A stretch of DNA of 64,000 bases from positions 9,617 to 73,616 of the forward strand of contig JAQTRS010000002.1 of the NCBI GenBank assembly GCA_028711705.1. The letters are read 5' to 3'. This document shows positions 11,371 through 40,540 of this stretch, one piece after another. Position 1 is the first letter of the stretch, and the number at the start of each line of letters is the position of its first letter. The position numbers were made by a program, and so were the translations under genes. The notes under the pieces were generated by a model that ran no database searches, was not told the origin of the DNA, and saw nothing but the letters and a program-made list of their open reading frames with translations. Origin of the DNA: Candidatus Moraniibacteriota bacterium. GTDB lineage: Bacteria; Patescibacteriota; Minisyncoccia; Moranbacterales; UBA1568.

Positions 11371-11408
11371 AAACAACGCCCGATAGCAATCCTGTCGGGC
11401 GGTTTTTT
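11371..11408. terminator. Rho-independent terminator (CGCCCGA-11nt-TCGGGCG then TTTTTT) that ends the small-ORF cluster. The uvrA2 stop lies at its T-tract edge
   Basis: A 7-bp GC-rich stem with a 6-T tract on the plus strand and A-rich sequence on the other side. Confidence 0.6.
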
Positions 11409-18306: not shown

Positions 18307-18514
18307 AATATGCTTCCCAAAAAACCGGCATACAGCAACGCCAGAAGCTGGTATTGGGATGGTATCATCTGATAAAAATGCAGTATTTGCTCGTACATGA
18401 TCTTTGACACTAAATATAGCCGGCCAAAAAAGACTGACTGTATAGTGTATACCTAAATGATAATATCGTCAATAAAAAACGGTTTTTTGGTATATATACG
18501 CTATGTTTTTTCGG

Positions 18515-20527: not shown

Positions 20528-20574
20528 AGCTTTCCATTACATCATTACATGAGACCACCATTCACCTTTCGCTC

Positions 20575-22466: not shown

Positions 22467-22898
22467 TGAAGAATTACCTCACTTTTCCCATGTGCCGCCT
22501 TCATCCCGAGAAACAAAAACAGGATGGAGCGCGAATACGTTCCGCGTCATATCCTGCAATTTCCTCGCAAGCGACTTCCAACAACAACGATCCCGTTCCC
22601 GGTCTTAGGCATCCCTGAGACAGATTCAAAATACTGTCTTGCGCCAACAATCCTCGATCCCCCCTTCAATACTGGAACTATGATGGATATCTGCTTCATG
22701 CCCCTCAATACGGTATGTCGCTATTCGGTAGAAAAGCGCACTACAGATCGTTAAATAATTTCTTGCAAACCTTTCGTGTTGGTATTCTCTCTTGTCTGGT
22801 AATTACAGAATTGTATCAGCTGACCTGTATTTGTCAACAGAAAATAAGACCATAGATTGACAGGTTTGTCAGTTTTTGCGTTGGTATCGATACAAAAA

Positions 22899-22929
22899 AC
22901 AGCCCCTGTGCTACAGGAGGACTGTTTTT
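22899..22929. terminator. Bidirectional terminator (AAAAAACAGCCCCTGTGCTACAGGAGGACTGTTTTT)
   Basis: An imperfect stem flanked by A and T tracts, just downstream of the minus-strand CE4 gene. Confidence 0.5.
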
Positions 22930-22945
22930 GTGGGTACGCAGCGGT

Positions 22946-24127
22946 TTATTGCTGCATCATTCCTATTCCCTGGCTGAGCGTCACGGTCTTGACGTTCTGG
23001 GCTTTGATATAGTCGACCATGGTCTTAAGGAGCGCCGGGTCATTGCTGAATTCCCCGCCATTCACATCCTGGCGATGCATTTCGAATATCACCCACTGCT
23101 TCTTGGCGACCGCATTATCGATCCATCCCTTGATGGTCGGCCAGGTCACGTCGGACGTGATATGCTGGTCACGCAATTTGTATCTATCAGTCAATGGACT
23201 GTTATACCCCTCATCCACACTTCGTGCCCCGATATATCCAGCATTTTTTACCAACGTGATAATCGAATCATTATAGGTGCCGTATGGGTAGACGAGTGAA
23301 GTCGCAGTGATACCCAAATTTTGCAGATTAACTTTCGACTGATTGATTTCCTTCTTCGCTTGAGCATTGGTAAGTATCGTGAGGTCGGGATGTGTCTGGG
23401 TATGTGAAGCGATTTCATGTCCCCTGGCAGCCATGTCCTTGATTTGTGAGGTTGTCACATATTCCGGTTCTGAGAGATACTTCGTGATAATCGCCTGGGT
23501 GCTTTTGATGCCGGCTGCATCGAGAATCGGCAGCCCATTTGCATAAGTGCTTTTGAAACCGTCATCGAAAGAAAAAGTTACCATCCCTTGGGCAAATTCC
23601 GCCTTCTGACTGACAAGACTTACATCATCAATGGTCAATTGTCCCACTTTGTCGATCAAATGAAACACCGTGAGCGCAGCAACGCCAGTCGGAACGACGA
23701 TAGAAGCTTGCGTCTGTTTCCATGTCGTACCGGTCTTGGGAACGGCTGCCAGATATTCATACTGATACGAATCATCGGTCATGTGGTATTGGGCCACAAG
23801 AGCCGTATCGACATTGGATTTGTACCAATCCGAGAAAAGATACTCCTCCCCCGCATTGACGGCTACTTCGTCGAAATACCATTTGGCATCGCCGTCAGTA
23901 TAGGCGGTGATGGCGACTTTGGCGGCACGGGTGCTTGAGTGTCCGGCGACCGGATAGGTGAACTTCGGCGTGTTGCTCCCCCAGGAGTCGCCCGACCAAA
24001 ACTGCGGATTGGTCCCATCCGCTGTTTCAAGTGTCGGATTTGGCACGAGGTTAGTCGTTGCGGCCGAGGCTGTTGCGATAGGATTCGTTACAAGTACGGC
24101 GAGCAAGAAAACGAGTAGTTTCTTCAT
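22946..24127 (-). CDS. Secreted polysaccharide deacetylase (CE4) with an N-terminal CBM-like beta-sandwich. Paralogous to the C-terminal half of the 18515-20527 protein
   Basis: A signal peptide MKKLLVFLLAVLV and the motifs VTFSFDDG and HTQTHPDL. Confidence 0.75.
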   Translation of the reverse strand: MKKLLVFLLAVLVTNPIATASAATTNLVPNPTLETADGTNPQFWSGDSWGSNTPKFTYPVAGHSSTRAAKVAITAYTDGDAKWYFDEVAVNAGEEYLFSDWYKSNVDTALVAQYHMTDDSYQYEYLAAVPKTGTTWKQTQASIVVPTGVAALTVFHLIDKVGQLTIDDVSLVSQKAEFAQGMVTFSFDDGFKSTYANGLPILDAAGIKSTQAIITKYLSEPEYVTTSQIKDMAARGHEIASHTQTHPDLTILTNAQAKKEINQSKVNLQNLGITATSLVYPYGTYNDSIITLVKNAGYIGARSVDEGYNSPLTDRYKLRDQHITSDVTWPTIKGWIDNAVAKKQWVIFEMHRQDVNGGEFSNDPALLKTMVDYIKAQNVKTVTLSQGIGMMQQ

Positions 24128-24299
24128 ACTGCATATCCTAAAAAAATTATACGCCATCCCATATCTCTTGTTTTTTGTTTTACATAAGCTTGTTCGTTAA
24201 AGAATTACATACGAAACAGGCCTCATTTATTGCCCTTTTGAGTAAACAATACACATTTTTTTCCAAAAAATCAACCTATTTTATACTGAAATAAAAGGG

Positions 24300-24328
24300 T
24301 TGTTTCCAACGTAGCAATCAAGTATAAT
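24300..24328 (+). promoter_or_regulatory. Candidate promoter TTGTTT-17-TATAAT for the 24368 gene
   Basis: Read directly in an AT-rich divergent intergenic region. Confidence 0.35.
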
Positions 24329-24367
24329 CAAAGTACAAAAAATAACGGTTTTTTTAACGGTGTTTTT

Positions 24368-25633
24368 ATGAAAAAAGATACAAAATATCCTTTTGTTTCG
24401 TTTGCGTTTTTTTCGTCCATGATACTTTTGCTCCCGCTCATTTCCTACTCTTGCTACCTGAGAAGCGGCACTTCGGCGGACGCAGAAGAAGAGCCAATCA
24501 TAACGGAAGCGCCTACACCATCGACAGACACACTCTCAGCGATTCCTGCGGAAGCCGCTCTTGCTGCAGCGCCATCGAACGCACCCGACACACTCGTGCC
24601 AGGCGAGGCGCAACCGCGAGCGATAGAAACATTCAAACCGCTCGATCTTACGGGTGCAAATGACGAACAACTCAAAAAATTAAGCGCCTATCAAAATGCG
24701 CTCGGCGGTTTTGTGACCAATCAATTGATGGTATTCGTAGATATGCCACAGACATCTTCGGGTATCAAAAAGTCCGCAAGGTATATCGCTCAAACATCCG
24801 ATGAATTTGCCAGACACGGAGTCACGCCTATCTTCATCTTCGAACCGATAGACGAGAAAGATCGATCGCTCAACCTCAAGAAAGTGGCCGAGGGAAAATA
24901 CCAAAAAAACCTCGATCAGCTTTTCGCTGAAATCCAAAAATCCGGTGCGGTCGAAAAAAATCTCGGTATCTTCGTCCCTTATCCGGAAGCCAATACTTCT
25001 GCTTGGGATAGGAGCGATTCTTCGCCAGAAGAATTCCCCGCCATATTCAACGCCTTTTTTGATACGGCCAAAAAATACTACCCGCACATACGAGGCAGCA
25101 TCCTCCTTGATACCAAAACCTACCCCATCAACGACAACGATTGGGAACACGGACGAGTCCAAAGCTTTGCGCCGTATCTCACCGGTATAAACCCGGAGCA
25201 CGTCAGCAGCTTCGGTCTCCAGGGCTTTCCTTGGTCCGATGAGCACCTGCAAGGCAAAGATTTCGACGCGCACAACTTCCTGCCGACATCCATCGCCACC
25301 GAAGCTGCCTCTATCCTCCATACCGACACGATATGGCTCAATACTGGAACATTTCGAGAAATGTATACCATCGGCAATTCCCCGGTAAGCGCCGATGAAC
25401 GGGCTCAGATATTCCAGTCCATTCTCGGCCAGGCAAACGCCCTCACCTCGCAAGGCTTCAAAACCTGGATCAATATCTTCGCCGAAAACAAGATGGCCGT
25501 CGACGAAAAAACCGATTGGTCCTATCTTGATGCAACCCAGAACAAAACCCTCAGCCCTCACGAATCTGCCCTCAAAAAATTTATCGATGATGCGCGCGGT
25601 TCGGGCGTAGCGCTTTCACTCTTTGACCTTTGA
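24368..25633 (+). CDS. Membrane-anchored conserved protein, paralogue of 15126-16319
   Basis: Shared motifs VPYPEAN, FGLQGFPW and WINIFAENK…TDWSYL. Confidence 0.6.
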   Translation: MKKDTKYPFVSFAFFSSMILLLPLISYSCYLRSGTSADAEEEPIITEAPTPSTDTLSAIPAEAALAAAPSNAPDTLVPGEAQPRAIETFKPLDLTGANDEQLKKLSAYQNALGGFVTNQLMVFVDMPQTSSGIKKSARYIAQTSDEFARHGVTPIFIFEPIDEKDRSLNLKKVAEGKYQKNLDQLFAEIQKSGAVEKNLGIFVPYPEANTSAWDRSDSSPEEFPAIFNAFFDTAKKYYPHIRGSILLDTKTYPINDNDWEHGRVQSFAPYLTGINPEHVSSFGLQGFPWSDEHLQGKDFDAHNFLPTSIATEAASILHTDTIWLNTGTFREMYTIGNSPVSADERAQIFQSILGQANALTSQGFKTWINIFAENKMAVDEKTDWSYLDATQNKTLSPHESALKKFIDDARGSGVALSLFDL

Positions 25634-25645
25634 TACCCGATCGCT

Positions 25646-26542
25646 TCAGCGGATCGAGAGCGTTGATTTCGGCTGGATGATGTCTTCAAACGTCGTAAAT
25701 GTCACATCATTGTCCACCAGCGTCTTTAATAGGACCTCATAGTTTTCTGTGTATTTTTGCATATCGAGGTTGCCGTTTTCGTCGGCATACTCCTGCGGAT
25801 GCAGCATGATTACGCATGGCCTTCCAACAGCGAATATCTTTTCACACGTATCGACAACGCCTTTGATCGGTATCATCTGCTGCGTTGCGAAGTCATACGG
25901 CGACGTCACATAATCGAAGAGGTTCTTTCCTTCCGAGGAATTAACCGAAAAACCCTCATCGCGTACAGCTCTCTTTCCCTCATCGGAAATAAGGTTGAAA
26001 GGCGGGATAAATGTCGTCAGCGGCTTGTTTGATATGAGACTCAGCGCTTTTTTACCCAAATCGATCCGGCGTATCGCATCATCATACCCGATCTGTCCGA
26101 ATTCCGTCAGATACACATGATTCGATGGATCATATTCCCCTCCGGAATGATCCCAGCCATGCATCGCGATTTCCATATTGCAACGATTCCTTTTGAGAAA
26201 ATGCATCATGCTCGTATCTTTTTCAATGTCCTTGGGAATCACGCCCGCCACGATGGGCACACCGTATTTGAAAGCCCCTCGCATAAGGCTCATCGAAACA
26301 TCCCGCCACGCATACGATTGAACATCATCGAGCCGCAGCACCACGAGCTTGCGCCCCACAAGCGCCGATGGCCTATCGGCCTGCTGTATACACACGGCAT
26401 CCCGAGCGATATCGATTACGCTTGTATCGTCGTGATAGGCGCTGTTGAGAAAATACACAACACTCCCTCCGGAAAACAACAGTACGATCAACACGATAAT
26501 GCTGCTTACGAGATAACTTTTACGGCCTTGAGGAGTTTCCAT
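25646..26542 (-). CDS. Membrane-anchored putative divergent polysaccharide deacetylase-like protein
   Basis: An N-terminal transmembrane segment. VVLRLDDV and HGWDH loosely resemble CE4 motifs. Confidence 0.4.
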   Translation of the reverse strand: METPQGRKSYLVSSIIVLIVLLFSGGSVVYFLNSAYHDDTSVIDIARDAVCIQQADRPSALVGRKLVVLRLDDVQSYAWRDVSMSLMRGAFKYGVPIVAGVIPKDIEKDTSMMHFLKRNRCNMEIAMHGWDHSGGEYDPSNHVYLTEFGQIGYDDAIRRIDLGKKALSLISNKPLTTFIPPFNLISDEGKRAVRDEGFSVNSSEGKNLFDYVTSPYDFATQQMIPIKGVVDTCEKIFAVGRPCVIMLHPQEYADENGNLDMQKYTENYEVLLKTLVDNDVTFTTFEDIIQPKSTLSIR

Positions 26543-26620
26543 ACGAGGATAATAAAGATATGGGTTACGAAAGTGAAACCGAGCAAAAAATTCATGTTCA
26601 TACGGGTGCGGTTATGCCTG

Positions 26621-27697
26621 TTAAAAAGAGACGCGATCCACCTTTTGCCACACAAGATCGCGCCTGTTCAACACTATCTCTTTGACGAATTCGGTGCTGA
26701 TGATGAATGCATTGATAAACACTATCAGAACATACGCCGGGAAAAATAAGAGCAATTCATAGCGATGGCCTTTGATGCTCGCGTACAAAGCGAAGAGAAA
26801 CGCATTCAGAAAATACATCGGGAGTATGAAGGTGAAGAACGCCTTCGGATTGGCCAAAGGCATGATGAACAGAAGCATACTGTAAAACACGCCGTCCAGA
26901 AAGATGCACGAGAGCTCGAATGCCGCCGCAGGACGATGGAAGACTATCGGGTAATACTTCCGGATATTCTGCCACCCGCCGCCATACCAGCGCCGCATCT
27001 GCCGAATATAGGAGGGCAGATTGGGCGGATCCTGGGTATACACCTTGGCATCTTCGGCATAGATGATCTTAAGACCCTTCAGGTGCAGCTGGAACGTGAA
27101 ATCCAAGTCCTCGGTCACAGTGTCGTGATTGAACGACAGGCCTCGCAGCACTTCGGTGCGCATGGCCGTCGCACACCCCGGCATCACGAACATGTAGTTG
27201 ATGATCGACTGCGCTTTCTTGAAAATCCCCTGGCCCACGATATAGTCGATCGCCCGGCAGGCCGTCAGCCAATTATGCTTAAGGCTGCACACATAGCCGC
27301 CCACCGCACCCACCTCGCGCTTCTCATCGCTCAAAAACGCCGCTTCTATCCGCTCGACGAAATGCTCGTCGATAATCGTGTCCGCATCCGTCATCACAAC
27401 CACATCCCCGGTCACGCTCGGGAGTCCGGCCTCTTGAGCCTTACTTTTGTTGCCGGTGTTGATGACCAGGTTTATCGCATGTATAACCGCGTGTTCGCTT
27501 GCAAATGACGCGAGAATCTTTTGTGTCCCATCCGTGCTGCCGTCATTGACCACGACGATCTGATCCAATGGACGCGTCTGAACAAGAGCGGACTCGAGGC
27601 ACTTTCGAAGACCCTTTTCTTCGTTATGACATGGGATAAGGAGCGAGATTTTCATAGATGCCATATCATGCCATTCGCACCGTCCAAGCTCCATCAA
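26621..27697 (-). CDS. Second processive GT2 synthase (PgaC/NodC-like; LLIPCHNE, DAD, QMRRW)
   Basis: Motif set as given. A C-terminal transmembrane bundle. The likely start is the internal Met MKISLL at 27655. Confidence 0.8.
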   Translation of the reverse strand: MMELGRCEWHDMASMKISLLIPCHNEEKGLRKCLESALVQTRPLDQIVVVNDGSTDGTQKILASFASEHAVIHAINLVINTGNKSKAQEAGLPSVTGDVVVMTDADTIIDEHFVERIEAAFLSDEKREVGAVGGYVCSLKHNWLTACRAIDYIVGQGIFKKAQSIINYMFVMPGCATAMRTEVLRGLSFNHDTVTEDLDFTFQLHLKGLKIIYAEDAKVYTQDPPNLPSYIRQMRRWYGGGWQNIRKYYPIVFHRPAAAFELSCIFLDGVFYSMLLFIMPLANPKAFFTFILPMYFLNAFLFALYASIKGHRYELLLFFPAYVLIVFINAFIISTEFVKEIVLNRRDLVWQKVDRVSF

Positions 27698-28808: not shown

Positions 28809-29528
28809 TTAGACGACTTTTCGGCGTGGCGCGGGCGGCGGCATAGGCTGCCTTGTCTTTGGCTGCGGCGGGACGCTCGCTTTGGCCATCGGCACATACC
28901 GCGGCATACTCATCGCATCCGACATCATGATTCTGCCGATAGGCGGATGCTCCCATTTTTTCTGCGGCGGAAAATCATGGGCGGGGCGCACTCCGGATAC
29001 GGGCCCATTCTGCCGGACGATTTTTCTTTTTTTTAGTATCTTGTATATATTGATCGATTCATCACAAATAATGAACATCATCGGGATAATAATAAGCAGG
29101 ATAAAGCCGGGCTTGCTCTTGGAAAAATGTACGGGATAACCGGCGTACGGAAGGATATACGCCACCTTGCCGACGATGTCGGACTGTTTCACGTCATCCT
29201 CATCCATAAGCTCATTGGCATCGCCTTTGGTATGATAGATGATTGCATCATCTTGCTGGAACTTCCCTATGATCCTGTGCGTCACGGTCACGCTTTCGTC
29301 TCCCACTCGGCGCGTCACCACATCCCCTACCCAATACTCCTGCATCGGCCTCGTCACGATGAAGCTCCCTGTCTTGATCGCCGGCTCCATCGACCCGGAC
29401 AAAACCGTAAACGTGAAGATGTTCGCTTTGTGCGAAAAGATCGAGACACCGACAATAAACATGACCACGAGCGCAAGCGTCGCTGTGCCATACCAGATGA
29501 AATTGATTATGGAGCGTATGACAGCCAT
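28809..29528 (-). CDS. SipW-type (archaeal/eukaryotic-like) type I signal peptidase with a Pro-rich basic C-terminal tail
   Basis: The catalytic motif LSGSMEP (identical to the Bacillus SipW SGSMEP) and an N-terminal transmembrane segment. Confidence 0.7.
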   Translation of the reverse strand: MAVIRSIINFIWYGTATLALVVMFIVGVSIFSHKANIFTFTVLSGSMEPAIKTGSFIVTRPMQEYWVGDVVTRRVGDESVTVTHRIIGKFQQDDAIIYHTKGDANELMDEDDVKQSDIVGKVAYILPYAGYPVHFSKSKPGFILLIIIPMMFIICDESINIYKILKKRKIVRQNGPVSGVRPAHDFPPQKKWEHPPIGRIMMSDAMSMPRYVPMAKASVPPQPKTRQPMPPPAPRRKVV

Positions 29529-29603
29529 AGGAAATGACCGGTGTTATGTTTTTGACCAGCCGCCCCTTTATCGTCAAAAGAGGCAGCAGAGAAAACCACA
29601 ATA

Positions 29604-30197
29604 CTAGAAACCGGTATCCACGCTCGCTGGCCATGTCGGAGCCGTTGCCTGCTTGGTCTGAACCGCGAGAATGGCATCGAATGTCTTGCCCTGATACTTG
29701 TCTCCTGCAGCCTCATCCAGCTTCACCGTCAAACGAAATTGGGCCTTATCTCCCGCAGCGATAGTATAAAGAGCGGCATCGGTACCGGTTGGAGAATAGT
29801 AAAATACACCCGTGATACCGGATGGACTGTTGACTAACACTTCCCACGCGCTGCCATTCCACCGCTCAACCTGGGTCACTTTGATCAAGTTCGGATCCGG
29901 TGATGGGATACTGATATCCCACGTGCCGGTTGCCAAACCGCGGAGATTCACCGGGATATTGGCAGTGCCTCCGTTTTGCACATCGAAATTGACTAATGTC
30001 GTTCCGCCGGGAACCATACCCGTTACATGAAACGAAAGCGGATCAGGAGTGTTCTGATTCAACAGATCGACCGAAAGCGTTCCTGCCGAAAGTGTTCCTC
30101 CAGCCGTATCCGACGCGCTGAAATACGAATACGTGCCCCCTCCGATAACCGCGGCCGCGGCCGCGACCATAAACAGACTTCGTAGAATTCCTAACAT
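29604..30197 (-). CDS. TasA/camelysin (peptidase M73, SipW-cognate signal peptide class) family secreted fibre protein
   Basis: The N terminus AAAVIGGGTYSYFSASD…GTLSVDL matches the TasA signature GGGTWAAFND…GTLDL. Confidence 0.7.
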   Translation of the reverse strand: MLGILRSLFMVAAAAAVIGGGTYSYFSASDTAGGTLSAGTLSVDLLNQNTPDPLSFHVTGMVPGGTTLVNFDVQNGGTANIPVNLRGLATGTWDISIPSPDPNLIKVTQVERWNGSAWEVLVNSPSGITGVFYYSPTGTDAALYTIAAGDKAQFRLTVKLDEAAGDKYQGKTFDAILAVQTKQATAPTWPASVDTGF

Positions 30198-30604: not shown

Positions 30605-31381
30605 CTATCTCCCCAAGATCAAGCTATTCCAGAGCTTGGCAACGCGAAACGACGGCCGGGTGGCGTCATCGCCCTTATTCTTGGATATAACCTCCAACCC
30701 CTCTCCATCGATAAAGGCCGCGCCTTCATTGGCATCGCTGAACCGGAACTTCACCTCATACCGGCTCTCCTCGGAATTCGTTGCCGGCTGCACACGGCCG
30801 ACACCCTCGAATGAAATCTTGTATATCTGCTCGAAGCGCGGGCTATACACGTCCAGATCTTTGCTCTTCTGTATCTCCGCATATTGGCTTTGATTGACCG
30901 TACCGGTAATCTTGACATTGCTGTCCGCGAACAACACGATAACCGGAGAATCCATCGTCAGATAGCTCCCTTCCACCGAATGGATCTGATATACCACGCC
31001 GTCTCGCGGCGCCTTTATCTCATAATCCGCCGCTTTCGATTCGAGCAAGGCGAGTTCCGTTCTGGCAGAAAGATTCTCTTCCGCAAGCGATTGTAGGGAA
31101 CTGATTCTCTGTCCCAGACTGTCATCCGCCAACCGCACCAGCAGATCCCCCTTCTTGACATGCTGGCCGGTACTGACCGCCACCTCGATCACTCTCCCCG
31201 TCACCGAGTTGGAGATCACAACCCTTTCTTTCTCTATCGAGAAAAACAAAGGCTGCTTGGTCATCTCATACGTATTCACTTTCCGCGCCAATGCCTGCGT
31301 CGCGATACCCAGCGATACGATGAGCACGACGGTAAAATAAAGTCCGTTGATAAGAAATTGTTTTGTGTTTTCGAATCGCAT
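30605..31381 (-). CDS. HlyD-family membrane-fusion-like protein (short, 258 aa)
   Basis: An N-terminal transmembrane segment and a biotin-lipoyl-like hairpin (VKKGDLLVRL…KAPRDGVV). Confidence 0.55.
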   Translation of the reverse strand: MRFENTKQFLINGLYFTVVLIVSLGIATQALARKVNTYEMTKQPLFFSIEKERVVISNSVTGRVIEVAVSTGQHVKKGDLLVRLADDSLGQRISSLQSLAEENLSARTELALLESKAADYEIKAPRDGVVYQIHSVEGSYLTMDSPVIVLFADSNVKITGTVNQSQYAEIQKSKDLDVYSPRFEQIYKISFEGVGRVQPATNSEESRYEVKFRFSDANEGAAFIDGEGLEVISKNKGDDATRPSFRVAKLWNSLILGR

Positions 31382-31400
31382 AATAGTATCGATAGGTTAT

Positions 31401-32930
31401 TTAATTATCCAACTGAACAGTGGCTCTCGACAACCTCTTCTCCCCTGTCAAAAACAGGTACAAAAGATAGGTGTTGAGAACGACCCATATGGTATTAAAC
31501 AGCGTCGTCCAGAAGTTTTTCGGCTCATACCATCCCACAGCAAGGCTCAATATCCCGAGCATAATGAGGAGCACATGCGGCCACACCCACTTCATGAACG
31601 CGTCTTTCTGAATTTTCTTCGAGGTGGTGGCCACCCATTCTTGCTCCGTTTCGAAGACCACCGAAAAGAGCGCGAGTATATACGGATAGAAGCTGGCCAC
31701 CGCCGTGGAAAGCGTCGCCAAATACAGGCGCCCGAGAAAAAGCCAGGAAAGCATGTAGTAGAGGACGAAATACGGCACGTAGTGAAGGGCCCATACCAAA
31801 CCTTCGTCCGTATTGAGCGGCTTGATGCCGAAGAGCAGGTACAGGATGGGAAACAGCAGGTATGCCAGAATGGAAATGCCCACCAGAAAATACGTATTGG
31901 AAACGAAATACTGAAGACGCTGATCGAGATTGAGCTTCTTCGAGCGCAACGGATTGGTGGTCAAGAGCATATCCAAGCCCCCTTTCGCCCAGCGCCGTTG
32001 CTGCTTGAAGTACGAGATGACGGTTGCCGGAGCCTCACCGACCGCCAACACCTCGTTGACAAACAAGGTGTGCCAGCCCTTCTCGTGCAGAAGGTATGAG
32101 GTCCAAATATCCTCCGAGTTGTTCTGTGCGATGCCACCGATCTCATCGATAGCCGCCCGACGGAAAATCATATTGGTTCCGACGCAGAAGGCTGAATTGG
32201 AAATGTTTTTCGCCGGGCAGACATATTTATAGAACACTTCCTGGGCCTGGGATGTCCCGGCGGCGATGAAGGAATGCGTGTTGGCGAAGTACTGCGGCGA
32301 CTGCACCATCGCCAGTTTCTTATTGTGCATATAGGGCAAGAGTTTGATAATAAAATCCTGTTTGGGCACCTGATCCGCATCGAAAATAGCGAAAAATTCG
32401 CCCTTGCCGTACCGAAGACCGCTGTTCACATTGCCCGCCTTGGCATGCGAGCGGTCCCTTCGTGAAACATACGCCGCACCGAGATTGGCAGCCAAAGCCT
32501 TCACTTCGAGGGATTGCCCATCATCGAGCACGAATGTTATGTGCGGATACTTCATACCTACCGCCGCGGTCACGGTTTTTCGGATAATATCGATCGGCTC
32601 GCCGGCCGTCGTGATAAACACATCGATGCTCGGCATATGCTCGGTCAGGAAAGCATTCGGGGCGACACGATGGCTGCGATGATGACTCTCGACGACCACA
32701 TCCAAAAGTACCGTCACCCACAGGCCAAGCAGTGCCAAAATGGAAATAGCATCGGCAATCACCTGAATGCAGTACAGCAAGATATTATCGGCATTGGCGG
32801 GATTGAACACGAAAGATCCGTATAGGAGAATCACGAGCGGCGCAGCAAGAAGGAAGAGCGTCGTGGTGCTCAACACTTTGGAGGATGCGATATGTTTCTC
32901 GGTAAAGAGATGTTTCAAATGCATGCTCAT
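31401..32930 (-). CDS. Cellulose-synthase-like processive GT2 (BcsA/CrdS type) without a PilZ domain
   Basis: HAKAGNVN, FDADQVP and QQRRW, plus multiple transmembrane segments; 509 aa, similar in size to curdlan synthase. Confidence 0.8.
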   Translation of the reverse strand: MSMHLKHLFTEKHIASSKVLSTTTLFLLAAPLVILLYGSFVFNPANADNILLYCIQVIADAISILALLGLWVTVLLDVVVESHHRSHRVAPNAFLTEHMPSIDVFITTAGEPIDIIRKTVTAAVGMKYPHITFVLDDGQSLEVKALAANLGAAYVSRRDRSHAKAGNVNSGLRYGKGEFFAIFDADQVPKQDFIIKLLPYMHNKKLAMVQSPQYFANTHSFIAAGTSQAQEVFYKYVCPAKNISNSAFCVGTNMIFRRAAIDEIGGIAQNNSEDIWTSYLLHEKGWHTLFVNEVLAVGEAPATVISYFKQQRRWAKGGLDMLLTTNPLRSKKLNLDQRLQYFVSNTYFLVGISILAYLLFPILYLLFGIKPLNTDEGLVWALHYVPYFVLYYMLSWLFLGRLYLATLSTAVASFYPYILALFSVVFETEQEWVATTSKKIQKDAFMKWVWPHVLLIMLGILSLAVGWYEPKNFWTTLFNTIWVVLNTYLLYLFLTGEKRLSRATVQLDN

Positions 32931-32934
32931 AAAA

Positions 32935-34989
32935 TTATCGTGAAGATACGACGGATTCCCTCCCCAACCTGCCAGACAACCAAGTGCCCATGGTTGTCAG
33001 CAAGACCATGCCTATGCCAAGACCCTGCACCGGCCAGTGCCACCACGGCCAATTGTTTTCCAAGCCGATTTCCGAGGGTCTCATATCATCCGGAAGTATC
33101 AGGTGCATGAAGCGCAGATTGGTCGGTTCGATACGGACATCGCGCGCATTGCTCACGGCCCAGTTCTGATCATAGCTCTGCGCGACGAGCATGTCGGGAT
33201 TGCGAAATGACGCCAGCTCCGAACTTTCCACCGTAAGCTTGTCGGGCCACCCGAAAGCAAGCGGAAGGGGTTTCAGGCTGCCATCGCGAATGAGCTTGGC
33301 CATCTGGCTGATCTCATCGTCCCACGGAATATATGAAGTGGCCTGAAGTGTCGGCTTGGGCAGATTATCGAAGCGCAGCAGTTGTTTTTCGTCATCCTTT
33401 TCGAACGCATACGCATAGGCTATCGGCTGCTTATTGTGCAAAACGGCATAAGCATCCGATGCGGTCACCTCGTCCACTTTTTCAAACATGGCAGGAGAAG
33501 ATTCCCTATCCACGGTCAATCCATCCACAAGCGGAGAAAGTTTCGGGATAAAGATATACTCTACTCCTAAAACCAACGAATAATCGTTGATGATCTCTAT
33601 CTGATGCTCCGTTACACCCGTATACGAGATATCTGTCTTCATGAGGCCATCGAAACGCATAGGATACGGATTGGGCAATAGATGCTGATTGTATGATGTT
33701 ATGAAACGCAATCCAGGTTTTCCTAGGTGACTCGCCTCAGCAACGTCCTTAACATAAATACTTCCCTGCGGAATATCTTTATCGGAAAAATATATCACCG
33801 CCGGATTTTGGATGGATTGCACGGGCTGCCCGGAGTACTGCGATGCGATTTCGATTGATTGAGCTATGCTTACGACAATGACCACGAGAAACACCGTGTA
33901 CAGCATACGGGATCTGACGTAAGGAAACGTGGTTTGTAAAAATGCAGCGAAACAAAAAGCTGATAATAGTGCTATAAAGGGTATCGCTCGAGAAAACTGG
34001 AATTTATTCACAAAGCTCGGATAATATCCCAACAATCCGAAATAAATGAACACAAGATAAAAAGTGCAGTAAATCAGAAGGATTTTTGCCCACCGAGGGG
34101 ACTCGTTTGACTTAAAAATAAGCACTGCCCAACTCAGACTGAGAAAAATGAAATACAAAAGACTCAGGCCGAAGTATTCGGGAGCAAGCAACATCCTCAT
34201 AAACTGAGGGGTAACATAAAACGGGTTACTGAATCCGTACCCTGAAAAAAAGTACTGGATGGTAAACGGCATCGAGCTCACCAAAAAAATGGTCATCGCC
34301 AACATGAAGGCCCAGATATCCTTTTTGAGATTATTCGCGAGCACAAGCACGAAGAACATGCCCGACGCGCTATATCCTATCACAGGATGCACCGACCACA
34401 ATGCCCCTGTCACAGCAGCCAGCGCATAGATATATCGCATATTCTTGAGAGCCGCAATCCAGAGCAGCGTGTAAAAGGGTACGACAATAAATCCGATGTA
34501 TATGGAATATTCTTTCAAAGCGGTCCACTGTTGAGATGTCGCATAGGAGACAATAGTTGTAAAGAAACTGAATAAACGATTTATTCCCAGATATCGGAGC
34601 ACCAGATACATGCTTATCCGGATGCCAATAAACACGCTGATCGATACCCACATCATTGCGTGCGTGATGGAAATCCCGGTCCATCGAGTCACATAAAACG
34701 TGAGGATGTGCTCGATATACTGGAACGCCCGCCAATGATTGACGCCATTGCCCCATACATGATCCCATGAGGCGATGCCGTACTGTGCGATATCCCTGAT
34801 ACGGAAGGCATGGTAGATCCAATCCTGATATCCCGTCGCCAAAAATTCATAACTCGCATAATACCCGATAAGGAACCATCCGACAGCAACGATGCATGCC
34901 ACAAGGAGTATCTCGATCAGCATCGACTGGAGCCATGGCGTTTTTGTTGGCGGCGTATTTTCACGCCCCGATGGCAGTTCCATATTCAT
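32935..34989 (-). CDS. Large polytopic membrane protein (about 12 transmembrane segments plus a C-terminal extracytoplasmic domain). Putative GT-C-like glycosyltransferase or polysaccharide export/polymerisation component
   Basis: The hydrophobicity pattern only. Confidence 0.5.
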   Translation of the reverse strand: MNMELPSGRENTPPTKTPWLQSMLIEILLVACIVAVGWFLIGYYASYEFLATGYQDWIYHAFRIRDIAQYGIASWDHVWGNGVNHWRAFQYIEHILTFYVTRWTGISITHAMMWVSISVFIGIRISMYLVLRYLGINRLFSFFTTIVSYATSQQWTALKEYSIYIGFIVVPFYTLLWIAALKNMRYIYALAAVTGALWSVHPVIGYSASGMFFVLVLANNLKKDIWAFMLAMTIFLVSSMPFTIQYFFSGYGFSNPFYVTPQFMRMLLAPEYFGLSLLYFIFLSLSWAVLIFKSNESPRWAKILLIYCTFYLVFIYFGLLGYYPSFVNKFQFSRAIPFIALLSAFCFAAFLQTTFPYVRSRMLYTVFLVVIVVSIAQSIEIASQYSGQPVQSIQNPAVIYFSDKDIPQGSIYVKDVAEASHLGKPGLRFITSYNQHLLPNPYPMRFDGLMKTDISYTGVTEHQIEIINDYSLVLGVEYIFIPKLSPLVDGLTVDRESSPAMFEKVDEVTASDAYAVLHNKQPIAYAYAFEKDDEKQLLRFDNLPKPTLQATSYIPWDDEISQMAKLIRDGSLKPLPLAFGWPDKLTVESSELASFRNPDMLVAQSYDQNWAVSNARDVRIEPTNLRFMHLILPDDMRPSEIGLENNWPWWHWPVQGLGIGMVLLTTMGTWLSGRLGRESVVSSR

Positions 34990-35004
34990 AGTATCTTAAT
35001 CTTT

Positions 35005-37086
35005 TTATTTTTTCGATGTCATCAGCCACGCTTCCATGAAGCTCTTCGAATTGGCGCCGTCTATATCCTCCGGCTTCAGGGACTGTATTTGCCGTCGCGC
35101 TCCGTCGCTATCATAGAACGCGCTGTACATGGCTAGGTAATCTTTGAACATCGTCGGATTTCGAAACTCCGGTTCCGAAAGCATATTTTCCTGCACCCTC
35201 TTCGTGTCTTGACCCAAGTATAAGCTTCCCGGGCTTATCGGGAGCAGCTGGATGCCGAGTCTGGCTTCGGGACGAGCGTTGAACCAGGTCGCCGCATCGA
35301 GCTTGCCGCCCCATACCAACGAGATGAACGAATGCTTGAAATTAGCGAACCGGGCATCACTTCGATCGATATTGAGCCAATCCCTGATCGCGCTCGCCGA
35401 CTCCTCGGAATACAGGTAGCGAGCCATCTCCTCAAGTTTCTTGTTTCCTATCGCATCGCTCCACAGATACAATGCATACCAGGCATTGACCGCTTCCGAG
35501 CTCGACTCCTGGTTATTGCCGTCCGCGAACAGGCCCTGCCCGGAGGCGAAGCTATGGCCTTCATAGGCATCGAATCCACGAAGGTAGGGGAATGCCGTGT
35601 CCTTCCGATCCGTATTGGCGATATCTTGCACGAGAAGATTGATGAAACGCTCGTTGTCGGCAAGATATTCCTTGTCATACCGGGCAAGGACGCTGGCCGC
35701 ATAGATGAAATATCCGTAATGGAAATGGTGATCATTGAACAGTTCCGACCCGAAGCTGGCCGTCTCACCGACGATACCCTTGACCAAAGAATCGTAGTAG
35801 AAGTATTTTTTCTTCGATTCCTTCGCCAGCGTATTGCTTCGCCACAGTTCAAGCTCGGATCGAATCTTCATCCGCAACACCGCGCTTTCGGAATCCATAT
35901 CAAGCTGCTCCGCGATATCCAAGATATTCGCCAAGGCGAACAATTTTTTCCCGAGGAAATACGTGTCTTCTTCCGTTATGGAAATGTTTGACACATCATC
36001 CCTGACAAGGCTGCGAAGCCGCTCCTGCTCGGCGCTCGACAAGGAGCTCACTGGGAGCTGCAACAAAAGGTCGGGCATATCCCGGGAAAATCCGAAGGAC
36101 TTGCCCTGATACAGAGTCTGCTCGCCCCGCAGCGTCTGATACTTCCCTATCGGTTGGAGATGTTTCATATCCGCATCAAAGGCGAGGGTGCTCTTGGGGA
36201 GCAAGGCGAAGAGGGTTTCGGCATTGTTTTGCGTGGTGATTGCAAAGCGACTCTTCATGGCCTTACCGTCCGCATCAAAGCTTGCCTCGGTCGAAACTAT
36301 CGGATCGAAAGCGTATTTTTTGAATACATCAAGACTCTTGCTATCAGGTAACACGGCAATAGAAAAGCGCGCACCACGGTCGGAAACGAAAACGTCTATC
36401 CCTCTTTTGTCCTGTTCGGCTGTCATTACCTCATTACGGGAAAAGAAGAGGGCGAAGAATTTCCCGTGCACGGTGAAGAGCACGAAGTTGTCTCCCTTTT
36501 CCACGAGAGAAAAATCGTCCGCGAGAATTCGGAACGATTTTTTCGGCAAGACAGAAGCGAACACATAGGGTGATCCGTGCGTGAGGCGGATTTCCGAAAC
36601 GGTTTCGTCCTTGCTTTTCTGGGAGATGGCGACAGACAGGTCGTCATGGGACGCGATAAGCGCATCCATATTGTTTTTCTCGAAGGAAACCCGCAAATCG
36701 GGATTATATGACGCGAAAACGGTGTCGGCAGTCGAAACAACTTTCGGATACGACACCCCGAACCCATCGCCATTCATCTTCACCGCCAAAGGATACACGA
36801 ATAACGGCTCGGAAGTCTGCGCAAACGCCACCGAGCTATACCATTGATTCGTCGGTACCGGCAGGTCTGGACGGGCAGTGAATATCCTGTTCCTGATAAC
36901 CGTCTTGTGCTTCAGGTTGTCTATATCTTCATACACCAACTTCGACGCAGCATCGGATTGCGTCCGCAAGGACTGGGTATCGACAGAAAGACTCCCTGCA
37001 GGTTCGACGATGAATTTAATCGCGCCAAAAACAAGCAATCCGAAAATCAAAAACATACCGATTATGAGCGTACGTTGTCGAACCAT
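35005..37086 (-). CDS. Membrane-anchored GH81 endo-beta-1,3-glucanase
   Basis: GH81 signature NDHHFHYGYF and the catalytic E-x3-E pair (QESSSEA) within a conserved WYALYLW context. The start was chosen at the internal Met MVRQRTL (37086); the ORF-track start appears to be non-ATG. Confidence 0.65.
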   Translation of the reverse strand: MVRQRTLIIGMFLIFGLLVFGAIKFIVEPAGSLSVDTQSLRTQSDAASKLVYEDIDNLKHKTVIRNRIFTARPDLPVPTNQWYSSVAFAQTSEPLFVYPLAVKMNGDGFGVSYPKVVSTADTVFASYNPDLRVSFEKNNMDALIASHDDLSVAISQKSKDETVSEIRLTHGSPYVFASVLPKKSFRILADDFSLVEKGDNFVLFTVHGKFFALFFSRNEVMTAEQDKRGIDVFVSDRGARFSIAVLPDSKSLDVFKKYAFDPIVSTEASFDADGKAMKSRFAITTQNNAETLFALLPKSTLAFDADMKHLQPIGKYQTLRGEQTLYQGKSFGFSRDMPDLLLQLPVSSLSSAEQERLRSLVRDDVSNISITEEDTYFLGKKLFALANILDIAEQLDMDSESAVLRMKIRSELELWRSNTLAKESKKKYFYYDSLVKGIVGETASFGSELFNDHHFHYGYFIYAASVLARYDKEYLADNERFINLLVQDIANTDRKDTAFPYLRGFDAYEGHSFASGQGLFADGNNQESSSEAVNAWYALYLWSDAIGNKKLEEMARYLYSEESASAIRDWLNIDRSDARFANFKHSFISLVWGGKLDAATWFNARPEARLGIQLLPISPGSLYLGQDTKRVQENMLSEPEFRNPTMFKDYLAMYSAFYDSDGARRQIQSLKPEDIDGANSKSFMEAWLMTSKK

Positions 37087-37299
37087 AAGCGAAATAATCT
37101 GACTTAAAGTACCGTGACAGTCACTATCTATGATGATGAAAAAATACCGAAACCGACACAAGCGCTACCCTTCAGCTTTCCATATGCCTCAAAAAATGAT
37201 CCACATCTAAAATCTACGCAACATGGGTACAATAAAATCCCACTTTCTGAAAAGTGGGATTTGTATCGCTTCTGCAAAGGTTTTATGACCATCATCCTG

Positions 37300-38193
37300 C
37301 TACTTTCCCACCCCGCATACTTTTTGGATATTGCCACCGCTATTGCCTCCCTCGAAGCTGTTCCCGGCGAAATGGATGGAGTTCGAAAAGAATCCTGCCG
37401 GCTTTTTGCCGCCGCTCGGCGAACCGCAGGAAACGCCGAATTTCTTGTTCGATGCGAGGGTGTTCCCAGAAACTGTAACGTTTCCGCTTTTGGATGTCTT
37501 GGGATAGGATTGCAACGAAAGTCCACTGGCCGTATTGCCAACGAGAGTGTTGCGGGAGACTGAGAGTGAGGATCCGTTGACGACGATTTCCAGACCGCTT
37601 TCCTTATTGTTGGAAATGCGGTTATTCGCGATGGTGCCCGACACATTGTTACGGATATCGATCCCCTCTTCTTTGTTATTAGTGATGTCATTGTTGGTGA
37701 TCGCCAAACTTTTCCCGGGATGGATATACATTCCCTTCCGGTTCTTGGTGATGCGCGAATCCTTGATGGTGAGCGTGCCCCCGCCGGACTGCGTCATGAT
37801 ACCTGCATCGGAAGCGCCCTTGATCGTCACATTGATAAGTGTGACGCTCGCCCCCCTGGTAACGCTTATGCCAACCACCTTGGCATCGACCGTCACATTG
37901 CGAAGCGTCGATCCGTTTTCCATCCTTACGTCGCCGTTGATGACCGCTTTAGAATTATCCCCCGTCACCGACACGTTTTTCCGTATCCGTATATCTCCTG
38001 AAGATGCATTCGCGAAATGGATGTCCTTTTTCCCTGACTTGAGCTGCTTTTCAAGACCGCTCGCTGCGGCATAGGCCGGCGAAACGCCCTGGAAACAGAA
38101 GGCAACCGAAAGCATCGCAAAAAGGATTGCGAGCTTGTACTGCATGAGGGAGGAGTATTTCATAGGTGTCGTATTATCGGATAATGGTTTCAT
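37300..38193 (-). CDS. Secreted right-handed parallel beta-helix repeat protein (PbH1/NosD-like)
   Basis: A signal peptide, then repeated N-x-(I/V)-x-x-N turns (ITNNDITNNKEEGIDIRNNVSGTIANNRISNN). Confidence 0.6.
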   Translation of the reverse strand: MKPLSDNTTPMKYSSLMQYKLAILFAMLSVAFCFQGVSPAYAAASGLEKQLKSGKKDIHFANASSGDIRIRKNVSVTGDNSKAVINGDVRMENGSTLRNVTVDAKVVGISVTRGASVTLINVTIKGASDAGIMTQSGGGTLTIKDSRITKNRKGMYIHPGKSLAITNNDITNNKEEGIDIRNNVSGTIANNRISNNKESGLEIVVNGSSLSVSRNTLVGNTASGLSLQSYPKTSKSGNVTVSGNTLASNKKFGVSCGSPSGGKKPAGFFSNSIHFAGNSFEGGNSGGNIQKVCGVGK

Positions 38194-38272
38194 TCGGTCT
38201 TTTTTCCTATGCTTTACGGTATACCACGTGCCGCGCCTTGGCAAGCGCCGCATCCATCGCACACCGCCCCCT

Positions 38273-40540
38273 CTATTCTCCGTAATACTCGCTCGCGGAA
38301 ATGAAAATTTCATCGATCGCATCGCTTACCGCAACAGAGGCGGTGGCACTACCCTCATCGCCGCCATACGACACCTCGGACGCATCCTCCCACCGCGAAA
38401 ACATAGGGTCGGTAAAATCTGGCGGAGTTTGTCCGAGTGGATCGTTCTTATTCACGTAATACAAAATGCTATGGGCAGGGTTCTTGATGGAAACGCGGAC
38501 TTTAGAGGATTTTTTCTTCTTCGCTTTCTTTTCCGACAATTCCTTGCCGCTCTTGATATCGTAATACTTCACTTCTCCCCCCTCGCCATCGCGGTTGCCG
38601 GTAAGAAGCGGCTTGTCGGAAGTAACGGGCGTATAGGCACTGAAATTTTCGACGGGTTTGTCTTTGAGGGCGATCTTCATGAAATCATTCCAAATCGGCG
38701 CCGCCACGAAGACGCCGTCGGAACCGGCGGCCATCGCGTGGTTGTCGTTATTGCCTGCCCACACACCGACCGCAAGCGATGGCGTGTAGCCGATCGTCCA
38801 CGCGTCGCGGAAATCCTGCGTCGTGCCGGTCTTGGCAGCCACCGGCCGATCGGGCAAGATGAGCGGGCTATGGCTTCCGAATATCGGGGCGCGCGCCGCA
38901 TTATCCGAAAGAATGGAGTTTATCTTCCGTGCTACTTCCGGATCGAGCACCGACACGGGTTTTTCGGCCGCGTCGTCATCGATATGCTTCCCGCCCTGAT
39001 CGATGATATTCACCACCCCGTGCACCGGCGCCCGCATGCCCTCGCGCGCGAACACGCCGAAAGCTGCGGTCATATCCAAAAGTTTCACCTCTCCCCCGCC
39101 CAGCACCAGCGCCAATCCATAGCGATTGGTTTCATTCAGCGTGGTGATGCCAAGCTTATGCGCCATGTCGATGGTCTGCTGGACACCGGCCAGATAGAGG
39201 GTCTGCACAGCCGGGATATTGAGCGACTGCGAGAGTGTCTGACGCATCGAAAGGACGCCATGAAAACGCCCGTCGTAGTTATCGGGAATATAGTCTTTGC
39301 CCGATCCGTCCGGCCCGAAATTGATCCGCTTATCGGTGAGAATCGTCTCTGGCTGGAATCCTTTGGAAAACGCCGTCGCATAGGCGATCGGCTTGAAGGA
39401 ACTTCCCGGCTGGCGAAGGCGCGTCGTCACATTCACCTCGCCGTCGATAGAAGCGTCATAGAAATCCTTGCTCCCCACCATGGCCAATATCTCCCCGGTT
39501 CTGGGATCGACGGCCGTGAGCGCAGCATTTGTAGCATCGCGCGACATATTTTTTTTGGCCCCTTCGCGCACAGCCCACTCGGCCTGCTTCTGCATCTCCC
39601 AATCGAGCGTGGTATATATTTTCCAACCGCCCGTCTCCAAAGCCAATCGCCCGTATTCTTTCTCCAATTGCTCAATAACATAGAACACGAAATGCGGTGC
39701 GACTATCGCATGGGTCAAGGGAACAATCTTGGCGCCGGTATCGATGGTGATGGACTGCTTGAACTGCACATCCGTGATGAGTCCGAGCGCATACATCCGC
39801 GCCAATATACGGTCACGAGCGTTTATTGTGTGGGAGCGTTTGGCAACATAGGGCGAATACAGGCTCGGTGCCTTGGTGAGCGATGCCAGAAGAGCGGCTT
39901 CGTCCAGTGTCAAATCCTTCGCTTCCTTGCCGAAGTATACTTCCGCGGCCGTGCCCACACCATAGGCATTGGCGCCATAGGGCACACGATTGAGATACAT
40001 ATCCAAAATCTCATCCTTGGAAAAGGTATTCTCTATCTTGATGGCCATCACGGTTTCCAAGATCTTGCGCTTCACGGTGCGCTCCCGACCGAAGAACGCA
40101 TTGCGCGCCAGCTGCTGAGTGATGGTCGATCCCCCTTGCTCGATTTTTCCCGCCTCTATATCCGCGATGAGCGCCCGTACTATCGAGGTGAAATCGACGC
40201 CGTGATGCGCATAGAAATTGCTGTCCTCCGCCGCGATCGTCGCCTTGCGCATCGCATCGGAAATCTGATCATGCGGCATCACCTTGCGATTCTCCTCGCC
40301 GTGCAGCTGATACAGCACATGCGTACCCGTCCGATCATACAAAATCGACGTCTGCTCAAGCGGAATAGTCGGCAAGGTCTTGGCATCTTGGGTACCGAAC
40401 ACATAAATACCCGCAAAAGCGAGTACCGCGCCAAAAGCGAAAAGACTAACAACATAGGTTGTTTCCAAGGCGAAGCGGAGCGTTATACGCCAGATTCGTT
40501 TCATGATCGTTTGAGCATTCCCCATAACCGTTCGTATCAT
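38273..40540 (-). CDS. Class A penicillin-binding protein (PBP1A; transglycosylase plus transpeptidase)
   Basis: GT51 motifs (EDSNFYAHHGVD, GGSTITQQL) and transpeptidase motifs (SxxK, KTG). Confidence 0.9.
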   Translation of the reverse strand: MIRTVMGNAQTIMKRIWRITLRFALETTYVVSLFAFGAVLAFAGIYVFGTQDAKTLPTIPLEQTSILYDRTGTHVLYQLHGEENRKVMPHDQISDAMRKATIAAEDSNFYAHHGVDFTSIVRALIADIEAGKIEQGGSTITQQLARNAFFGRERTVKRKILETVMAIKIENTFSKDEILDMYLNRVPYGANAYGVGTAAEVYFGKEAKDLTLDEAALLASLTKAPSLYSPYVAKRSHTINARDRILARMYALGLITDVQFKQSITIDTGAKIVPLTHAIVAPHFVFYVIEQLEKEYGRLALETGGWKIYTTLDWEMQKQAEWAVREGAKKNMSRDATNAALTAVDPRTGEILAMVGSKDFYDASIDGEVNVTTRLRQPGSSFKPIAYATAFSKGFQPETILTDKRINFGPDGSGKDYIPDNYDGRFHGVLSMRQTLSQSLNIPAVQTLYLAGVQQTIDMAHKLGITTLNETNRYGLALVLGGGEVKLLDMTAAFGVFAREGMRAPVHGVVNIIDQGGKHIDDDAAEKPVSVLDPEVARKINSILSDNAARAPIFGSHSPLILPDRPVAAKTGTTQDFRDAWTIGYTPSLAVGVWAGNNDNHAMAAGSDGVFVAAPIWNDFMKIALKDKPVENFSAYTPVTSDKPLLTGNRDGEGGEVKYYDIKSGKELSEKKAKKKKSSKVRVSIKNPAHSILYYVNKNDPLGQTPPDFTDPMFSRWEDASEVSYGGDEGSATASVAVSDAIDEIFISASEYYGE

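Follow-up and report, generated by a model that had tools for sequence, protein, structure and literature searches.

The window analysed here, a 64,000-nucleotide (64-kb) stretch of a Candidatus Moraniibacteriota genome (contig JAQTRS010000002.1, positions 9,617 to 73,616), carries on its minus strand four adjacent genes spanning 6.5 kb which very probably form an operon dedicated to glucan synthesis. In the direction of transcription they encode a membrane-anchored homologue of GH81 endo-beta-1,3-glucanases, a polytopic protein of the GT-C glycosyltransferase fold, a processive family 2 glycosyltransferase (GT2) of the BcsA/CrdS family, and a minimal HlyD-type adaptor (membrane fusion protein). 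Judged from the sequences and structural models, the module probably represents a synthase-dependent operon for a surface beta-glucan, whose chain the GT-C enzyme would modify once it is outside the membrane and the GH81 protein would trim. The part of this reading in which the GT-C enzyme decorates the glucan is advanced more cautiously and falls somewhat short of an even chance.

The positions and common orientation of the four open reading frames, as given in an earlier note made from the DNA letters, were confirmed: the GH81 gene (35005-37161, 718 aa, identified by matches in Pfam and the PDB), the GT-C gene (32935-34989, 684 aa, AlphaFold2 model and Foldseek), the GT2 gene (31401-32930, 509 aa, Pfam, motifs and a match to the BcsA structure) and the adaptor gene (30605-31381, 258 aa, Pfam together with AlphaFold2 and Foldseek), all on the minus strand. 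In this order they are separated by gaps of 15, 4 and 19 nt. The adaptor gene is followed by a 407-nt gap in which a promoter scan placed a perfect TTGACA-16-TATAAT element on the minus strand (30500-30473, 12 of 12 consensus matches; a match to the consensus only), a candidate sigma-70 promoter at the downstream boundary of the operon. Because the gaps within the module are tight and the 407-nt gap behind it holds this promoter consensus, the four genes look like a single transcription unit. With a GC content of about 0.49-0.50 the module does not differ from the window, and horizontal transfer, as judged by composition, was rejected on this basis. Rfam and tRNA scans of the 64-kb window gave no match.

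The hydrolase, for which GH81 hallmarks had been noted before, proved to be a genuine member of this family. Of the two GH81 models in Pfam, each with a cut-off of 25.6 bits, the 718-aa protein matches Glyco_hydro81C with 212 bits (E 1.9e-62) and Glyco_hydro_81 with 28.7 bits, and solved GH81 structures were matched over residues 98-707 (6fop with 5e-88, BH0236 with 1e-64). Both NDHHFHYGY and NNQESSSE line up with their counterparts in BH0236 and CtLam81A, and the GH81 catalytic acids are present, namely the Asp in NDHHFHY and the two Glu in E-x3-E. All 13 full-length orthologues keep NDHHFHY and GNN[QE]ES[ST]SE as well as an N-terminal hydrophobic anchor. In the window protein this single anchor is followed by a catalytic domain predicted to lie outside the membrane, and no carbohydrate-binding module (CBM) is present. 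The listed reading frame begins at a TTG codon; the ATG at 37086, corresponding to residue 26, is the more likely start. The sole activity reported for GH81 is that of an endo-beta-1,3-glucanase (EC 3.2.1.39), with laminaritriose as the minimal substrate, and the characterised bacterial GH81s are degradative enzymes (PMC9609564). On sequence grounds, the window protein is a membrane-anchored GH81 endo-beta-1,3-glucanase homologue.

Related loci were gathered through homologues and by scanning one genome per GTDB species with an alignment of the 684-aa family (16 loci), and all four window proteins were mapped onto each locus by tblastn. The gene order GT-C, GT2, adaptor was invariant across all related loci, with the GT-C gene directly upstream of the synthase gene and often overlapping it (by 4-14 nt in L001, L003 and L006). 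The GH81 gene was adjacent in 16 of 16 assessable loci, the window counted; three further loci end too early for this adjacency to be judged and were excluded from the 16. It occupies one of three positions, i.e. upstream co-directional, downstream co-directional or downstream convergent, and the identity of its product to the window protein drops to 29% (range among orthologues 29-58%). Since the linkage survives rearrangement at a divergence down to 29% identity, there is good evidence that GH81 and synthase are functionally coupled and not neighbours by chance, and the gene pairing pointed out in the earlier note is real. In one long-read-style contig (L022, 10001-14375) the GT-C, adaptor and GH81 genes each came in two tblastn pieces, which are probably frameshift assembly errors, not pseudogenes.

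Homologues of all three searched proteins carry the names Candidatus Moranbacteria or Moraniibacteriota, which belong to the Candidate Phyla Radiation (CPR)/Patescibacteria. For the 684-aa and 258-aa proteins of the window, counterparts with 100% identity (P0121 and P0366) are encoded on an NCBI contig with locus tag PHT88_01850. These bacteria have genomes of about 1 Mb, are thought to be host-dependent and possess poorly known surfaces. Several metagenome-assembled genomes from third parties in which a module of the Moranbacteria type occurs (L013, L017, L019, L020, L021, L026 and L027) have titles that name Bdellovibrionales, Bacteriovoracaceae, Pseudomonadales or Gammaproteobacteria, and one NCBI homologue bears the name Undibacterium; these names are probably taxonomy mislabels or the result of bin contamination.

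The synthase was found to be as described earlier, a PilZ-less GT2 of 509 aa with HAKAGN and QQRRW motifs. It matches the Pfam GT2 families and Cellulose_synt, its best PDB match is BcsA (1.7e-52, residues 96-490), and its motifs read LDDG, HAKAGN, DAD, FCVGTN, SED and QQRRW. The alignment extends over transmembrane (TM) helices TM5-8 of BcsA and the gating loop, which reads WVATTSKK instead of FxVTxKG. No PilZ match was obtained with Pfam, and the protein ends 19 residues past the BcsA-aligned region. Its score against the best NCBIfam model, TIGR03030 CelA, was 253.3 bits, far under the cut-off of 699.1, and it reached 192.9 bits against PRK11498 (cut-off 992), i.e. it is not a BcsA equivalog. 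The database copy of the window GT2 (P0001) starts two codons later.

Sinorhizobium meliloti BgsA/BgsB (SMb20391/SMb20390), an Agrobacterium crdASC-like cluster, four HlyD-paired Rhizobiales GT2s, two BcsA sequences, PgaC and NodC served as reference sequences. The crdASC-like cluster was identified by fitting gene sizes, by one member annotated as beta-1,3-glucan synthase and by the published crdA ribosome-site/start sequence in the right place (PMC10819609). The neighbour-joining tree (489 columns, 200 bootstraps, limited sampling) showed the Moranbacteria GT2s to be monophyletic (100% bootstrap) and to form a clade with BcsA, BgsA and the CrdS-like sequences, with NodC and PgaC outside (100% bootstrap). 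The sequences thus group with glucan synthases, and by this phylogeny a chitin-type or poly-N-acetylglucosamine (PNAG)-type synthase is excluded. The resemblance to CrdS suggested in the earlier note did not extend to orthology, as the Moranbacteria GT2s form a separate clade outside BcsA, BgsA and the CrdS-like proteins (94% bootstrap), nor to size: CrdS-like proteins and BgsA have 655-664 aa, whereas the Moranbacteria GT2 is about 145 aa shorter and has no C-terminal cytoplasmic domain.

Differences at two motifs may bear on the likely product. At the position of FFCGS, the acceptor-site motif of BcsA, the Moranbacteria enzymes read FCVGTN and the three CrdS-like sequences FCVGTS, and both groups have SED at the position of the catalytic motif TED; BgsA reads FCCGS with TED, two other HlyD-paired GT2s FCCGT with TED, and BcsA retains FFCGS and TED. 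In the tree alignment, the combination of FCVGT and SED is common only to the three CrdS-like and all nine Moranbacteria sequences. This correlation with curdlan-type synthases is suggestive. On account of the GH81 association and the FCVGT/SED variants we consider it reasonably likely that the polymer contains beta-1,3 runs. Three points pull the other way. In the tree the Moranbacteria GT2s branch beside the entire proteobacterial BcsA/BgsA/CrdS-like group, as its sister, and not within the CrdS-like sequences, so that the phylogeny assigns no linkage. The motif correlation was observed with three CrdS-like sequences, identified by gene order, one annotation and the crdA start-site match, and not with the experimentally studied CrdS itself. 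Moreover, a PilZ-bearing BcsA-like enzyme makes mixed-linkage glucan, and linkage is therefore not readable from similarity (PMC10374906). The beta-1,3 product proposed in the earlier note is thus backed by the GH81 association and by the motifs shared with CrdS-like proteins, but not by the phylogeny. FCVGT/SED is a candidate sequence marker by which beta-1,3 might be told from beta-1,4 specificity, which is currently not predictable from sequence (PMC10374906).

A reading that competes with a beta-1,3 product holds that the GT2 makes cellulose, another beta-1,4-glucan or a strictly alternating mixed-linkage glucan, and that the GH81 protein is a separate scavenging laminarinase acting on beta-1,3-glucan of host, algal or fungal origin. 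It can draw on the best solved-structure and NCBIfam matches of the GT2, which are cellulose synthases, on the Joint Genome Institute (JGI) naming GT2 homologues 'cellulose synthase (UDP-forming)', on the position of the GT2 outside the CrdS clade and on the degradative nature of the characterised bacterial GH81s (PMC9609564). We nevertheless regard it as unlikely: the GH81 gene remained adjacent in all 16 assessable loci despite three rearrangements and identities down to 29%, its product differs from the secreted GH81s used in foraging by its membrane anchor and the lack of a CBM, neither BcsB nor a cellulase-type partner of GH5, GH8 or GH9 was found among the neighbours scanned, and the BcsA-type FFCGS/TED is replaced by FCVGT/SED as in CrdS-like proteins. 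In addition, laminaritriose as the minimal GH81 substrate argues against a strictly alternating mixed-linkage product (PMC9609564).

The 684-aa protein, which had been regarded as an export or polymerisation partner, turned out to have a different character. Searches by sequence against Pfam, NCBIfam and the PDB returned no match, but an AlphaFold2 model built from 38 homologues reached a predicted local distance difference test score (pLDDT) of 88.2 and a predicted template modelling score (pTM) of 0.87, and the top 21 Foldseek matches in the PDB were all GT-C enzymes with probability 1.0, the best being AftD with E 2.3e-7. Besides AftD they include AftA, STT3/PglB/AglB, DPY19, ALG9, ArnT and Pmt4. 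In the model a polytopic N-terminal domain leads into a soluble domain (about 260 aa), and a TM helix closes the chain at the C-terminus. D56 (in YQDW) is invariant in the 38 sequences, which share as little as 35% identity, and so are a number of Arg, Gln and His positions within the membrane domain, R63, Q331 and R334 being among the invariant residues; Asp76 is conserved in at least 90% of them. In the AlphaFold2 model, Asp56 sits in the first outside loop just after TM1, and the first loop after TM1 is the usual place of the catalytic acid in GT-C enzymes. Judged by the model, the protein is a GT-C-fold glycosyltransferase of a family not in Pfam: none of the 38 family members matches any GT-C Pfam model (PMT_2, YfhO, PTPS_related, DUF6541 and others). 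The family is small: among 1.84 billion cluster representatives a profile search picked out 162, and only the most distant relatives found in this way match PF10131 (PTPS_related), YfhO or DUF6541. Among distant relatives, P0308 (1518 aa), P0321 (2159 aa), P0295 and P0301 have large extra regions, which include N-terminal fusions with response-regulator receiver and TPR domains; these fusions suggest regulated GT-C variants in other lineages.

A possible donor can be proposed from the homologues. About a quarter of the detectable ones (around 15 of 58) have 930-952 aa and carry an N-terminal PF00535 domain, whose best NCBIfam matches are PgfS, ArnC, dolichyl-phosphate hexose transferase, PpgS and AglJ, i.e. 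in these homologues the GT-C protein is fused to a domain of the polyprenyl-phosphate sugar synthase type. Several related loci also have a stand-alone copy of such a GT2, and GtrA-family genes lie nearby in L006, L016-L020 and L023. The homologue fusions and the nearby GtrA genes support a polyprenyl-phosphate sugar as the putative donor of the GT-C enzyme. With a fold and a probable donor class, a previously unannotated family of about 160 clusters becomes interpretable. Two considerations count against the role proposed for the enzyme. Neither a polyprenyl-phosphate sugar synthase gene nor a GtrA gene was found when sought in the 64-kb window, and the donor pathway in this lineage, if any, would therefore be encoded elsewhere; furthermore, the acceptor could be a protein or a lipid instead of glucan.

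The latter consideration can be expanded into a full alternative, in which the GT-C enzyme glycosylates a protein (of an S-layer, or the adjacent SipW-dependent TasA-like protein) or a lipid or teichoic-acid-like acceptor, and its linkage to the synthase reflects shared regulation of surface components. Many of the GT-C structural matches are indeed protein glycosyltransferases (STT3/PglB/AglB, DPY19, Pmt), one distant sequence relative is YfhO, which glycosylates teichoic acids, and a gene pair for SipW and a SipW substrate lies directly downstream of the module in the window, in L001/L015 and in L016. However, the synthase gene invariably has the GT-C gene as its direct 5' neighbour, with stop and start codons often overlapping, the SipW/TasA-like genes are adjacent in a minority of loci only and have their own promoter-like site, and AftD and AftA, which match the model best, transfer sugars to polysaccharides. 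We judge this alternative to be improbable. Still less likely is that the 684-aa protein is mainly a BcsB-like structural activating subunit which guides the chain and whose glycosyltransferase activity is lost or secondary: the soluble domain modelled on the outside, with a TM anchor behind it at the C-terminus, recalls the membrane anchor layout of BcsB, and no BcsB homologue was found among the neighbours scanned, but Asp56 and the Arg, Gln and His positions mentioned above do not vary among the 38 sequences, whose identities go down to 35%, and the fusion of homologues to polyprenyl-phosphate sugar synthase domains argues for catalysis.

The fourth protein was confirmed as HlyD-like by Pfam matches above cut-off to HlyD_3 (46.4 bits) and HlyD_D23 (40.4 bits). 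In its AlphaFold2 model (pLDDT 83.7) a TM helix at the N-terminus is joined by a lipoyl domain, an alpha-hairpin and a beta-barrel, and the top Foldseek matches are MacA, EmrA, MexA, ZneB, Spr0693 and BesA with E values of about 1e-11. In the model the hairpin is very short (13+17 residues), i.e. the long alpha-helical hairpin of the kind that docks TolC is missing, and there is no membrane-proximal domain. All 73 adaptor homologues fall within 254-299 aa, whereas the HlyD-type partners from Rhizobiales, BgsB and the CrdA-like protein included, have 397-518 aa. CPR cells are generally described as single-membrane cells without an outer membrane, and the short hairpin predicted for the adaptor fits such an envelope. 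A specific kinship with BgsB or CrdA was rejected, as pairwise comparison gave no significant similarity and the proteins have only the fold in common.

The earlier note had presented the adaptor and the GT2 as partners. This pairing is real but not new, since BgsBA and the crdA-crdS-like genes have the same architecture. In the Agrobacterium crdASC-like cluster (L005, 3057-4511) the gene in crdA position belongs to the HlyD family (HlyD_3, E 5.6e-5); the functions of CrdA and CrdC were still given as unknown in a 2023 paper (PMC10819609). An HlyD-family neighbour was likewise present beside all four other PilZ-less Rhizobiales GT2s examined (L028-L031), and the pairing of GT2 and HlyD is the rule for PilZ-less proteobacterial beta-glucan synthases.

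Taken as a synthase-dependent beta-glucan operon, the module could operate as follows. The GT2 would polymerise glucose from UDP-glucose at the cytoplasmic face and thread the chain through its own membrane channel, both substrate and linkage being deduced. As it has neither PilZ nor another C-terminal domain, it would be active constitutively or under some other form of control. The product would most likely contain beta-1,3 runs in view of the constant GH81 companion and of the FCVGT/SED motifs shared with the curdlan-synthase-like clade. At the outer face of the membrane the GT-C enzyme may add a sugar from a polyprenyl-phosphate donor to the emerging chain, the presumed acceptor, for example as side branches. 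The minimal adaptor may form an extracytoplasmic collar or scaffold over the synthase, as presumed for BgsB and CrdA, and by analogy with BcsZ in cellulose synthesis the membrane-anchored GH81 protein would trim, release or remodel the polymer.

Among known systems, BgsBA of S. meliloti (SMb20390/SMb20391), which makes a mixed-linkage beta-glucan, has the same arrangement of a PilZ-less BcsA-family GT2 gene beside an HlyD-type gene, and in pairwise comparisons the window GT2 scored highest with BgsA (208-211 bits, 30-34% identity). The HlyD-type protein BgsB is required for production of the BgsBA polymer (PMC13438883). BgsA differs from the window enzyme in its length of 664 aa, its C-terminal domain binding cyclic di-GMP (c-di-GMP) and its FCCGS/TED motifs; BgsB has 410 aa and a long hairpin and works with TolC. 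The BgsBA locus includes neither GT-C nor GH81, and its adaptor gene precedes the synthase gene, whereas it follows in the window. The curdlan cluster crdASC of Agrobacterium shares with the window a PilZ-less FCVGT/SED GT2 paired with an HlyD-family protein in the crdA-like position, and its product is a beta-1,3-glucan, as proposed for the window module. Unlike CrdS, the window GT2 falls outside the CrdS-like clade and is shorter by the approximately 145 aa mentioned above; no CrdC homologue is present in the module, curdlan clusters are without GT-C and GH81, and the CrdA-like adaptor measures 484 aa versus 258 aa.

The Bcs system (BcsA-BcsB-BcsZ-BcsC) likewise combines a processive GT2 and its membrane channel with an operon-encoded glycoside hydrolase, BcsZ taking the place of GH81, but the window module is without PilZ, BcsB and BcsC, its hydrolase belongs to GH81 and not GH8, and FFCGS/TED is replaced. 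In the cyanobacterial tripartite secretion of cellulose (synthase, HlyD-like protein and TolC), as cited in PMC13438883, a synthase is also joined by an HlyD-like adaptor; that system needs an outer-membrane channel, whereas the hairpin of the window adaptor comprises only about 30 residues. The GT-C protein itself resembles those of the three-component extracytoplasmic glycosylation systems GtrA/GtrB/GtrC, CsbB/GtcA/YfhO and ArnC/ArnT, where the GT-C enzyme uses a polyprenyl-phosphate sugar that a small GT2 makes and a GtrA-family protein flips. Related loci have all three parts, and in some cases the small GT2 and the GT-C enzyme form one protein. In contrast to these systems, the window GT-C gene is locked to the operon of a processive glucan synthase, and its family, absent from Pfam, is only remotely related to PF10131 and YfhO.

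Compared with these systems, the new features of the module are an obligate GT-C partner, a GH81 partner, a minimal adaptor, the lack of a c-di-GMP module and the restriction to a CPR lineage. In a literature search we found no relevant work on GH81, curdlan or cellulose synthase in Moranbacteria, Patescibacteria or CPR, nor a paper on such a module, and a processive synthase tied to a GT-C transferase was a combination not found described in the literature searched. More speculatively, and in our estimation rather doubtfully, the module could be a hybrid machine in which the BcsA-type synthase is in physical contact with the GT-C enzyme; the latter would add branches or substituents to the emerging beta-1,3-glucan from a lipid-phosphate sugar, and the dedicated membrane-bound GH81 would remodel the resulting surface or wall-like polymer. 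If true, such a machine would constitute a new class of co-synthetic polysaccharide modification, with parallels to fungal wall glucan synthesis and Eng1-type remodelling. The operon further provides testable candidate genes for attachment or envelope polymers in an uncultured CPR lineage.

Directly downstream of the module (28809-30197, minus strand) lies a gene for an archaeal-type signal peptidase SipW (TIGR02228, 108.7 bits) together with one whose product has a signal peptide of the SipW-dependent type and weakly matches TasA/camelysin. The perfect sigma-70 consensus at 30500-30473, described above, belongs to this pair, and the neighbourhood recurs in L001/L015 and L016. It may represent a surface-fibre or matrix gene set beside the glucan operon; as part of the operon it was rejected because of the 407-nt gap with the promoter consensus and the adjacency in only some loci. 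Just upstream of the GH81 gene (37300-38322, minus strand) a membrane-anchored right-handed beta-helix protein is encoded (Beta_helix, 116 bits; NosD-like). Right-handed beta-helix proteins are often polysaccharide lyases, hydrolases or epimerases, but this one was rejected as part of the module, having no counterpart beside it in other loci.

A second polysaccharide gene set occupies 16343-27697 on the minus strand. It comprises a PgaC/NodC-like GT2 (26621-27697), a DUF2334 protein (25646-26542), a Polysacc_deac_1 protein (22946-24157), a nucleotidyltransferase (21774-22466), a GH18 protein (20575-21777), a Polysacc_deac_1 protein with CBM4_9 and Ig domains (18515-20527) and another GT2 (16343-17617), all on this strand. 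Its composition suggests a synthase of the chitin or PNAG type accompanied by deacetylases and a matching hydrolase, and would mirror the synthase-plus-hydrolase logic of the GH81 operon. Elsewhere in the window, two UvrA-like genes (4304-7132 and 11407-13956, encoding 942 and 849 aa) and a UvrC gene (8681-9928) share one 10-kb stretch, all on the minus strand; for the second UvrA copy no match to the UvrA DNA-binding domain was obtained. The length of 1217 aa encoded by the UvrB gene (45693-49346, minus strand) is due to an intein (Intein_splicing 66.7 bits) that includes a homing endonuclease of the LAGLIDADG type (LAGLIDADG_3 59.8 bits).

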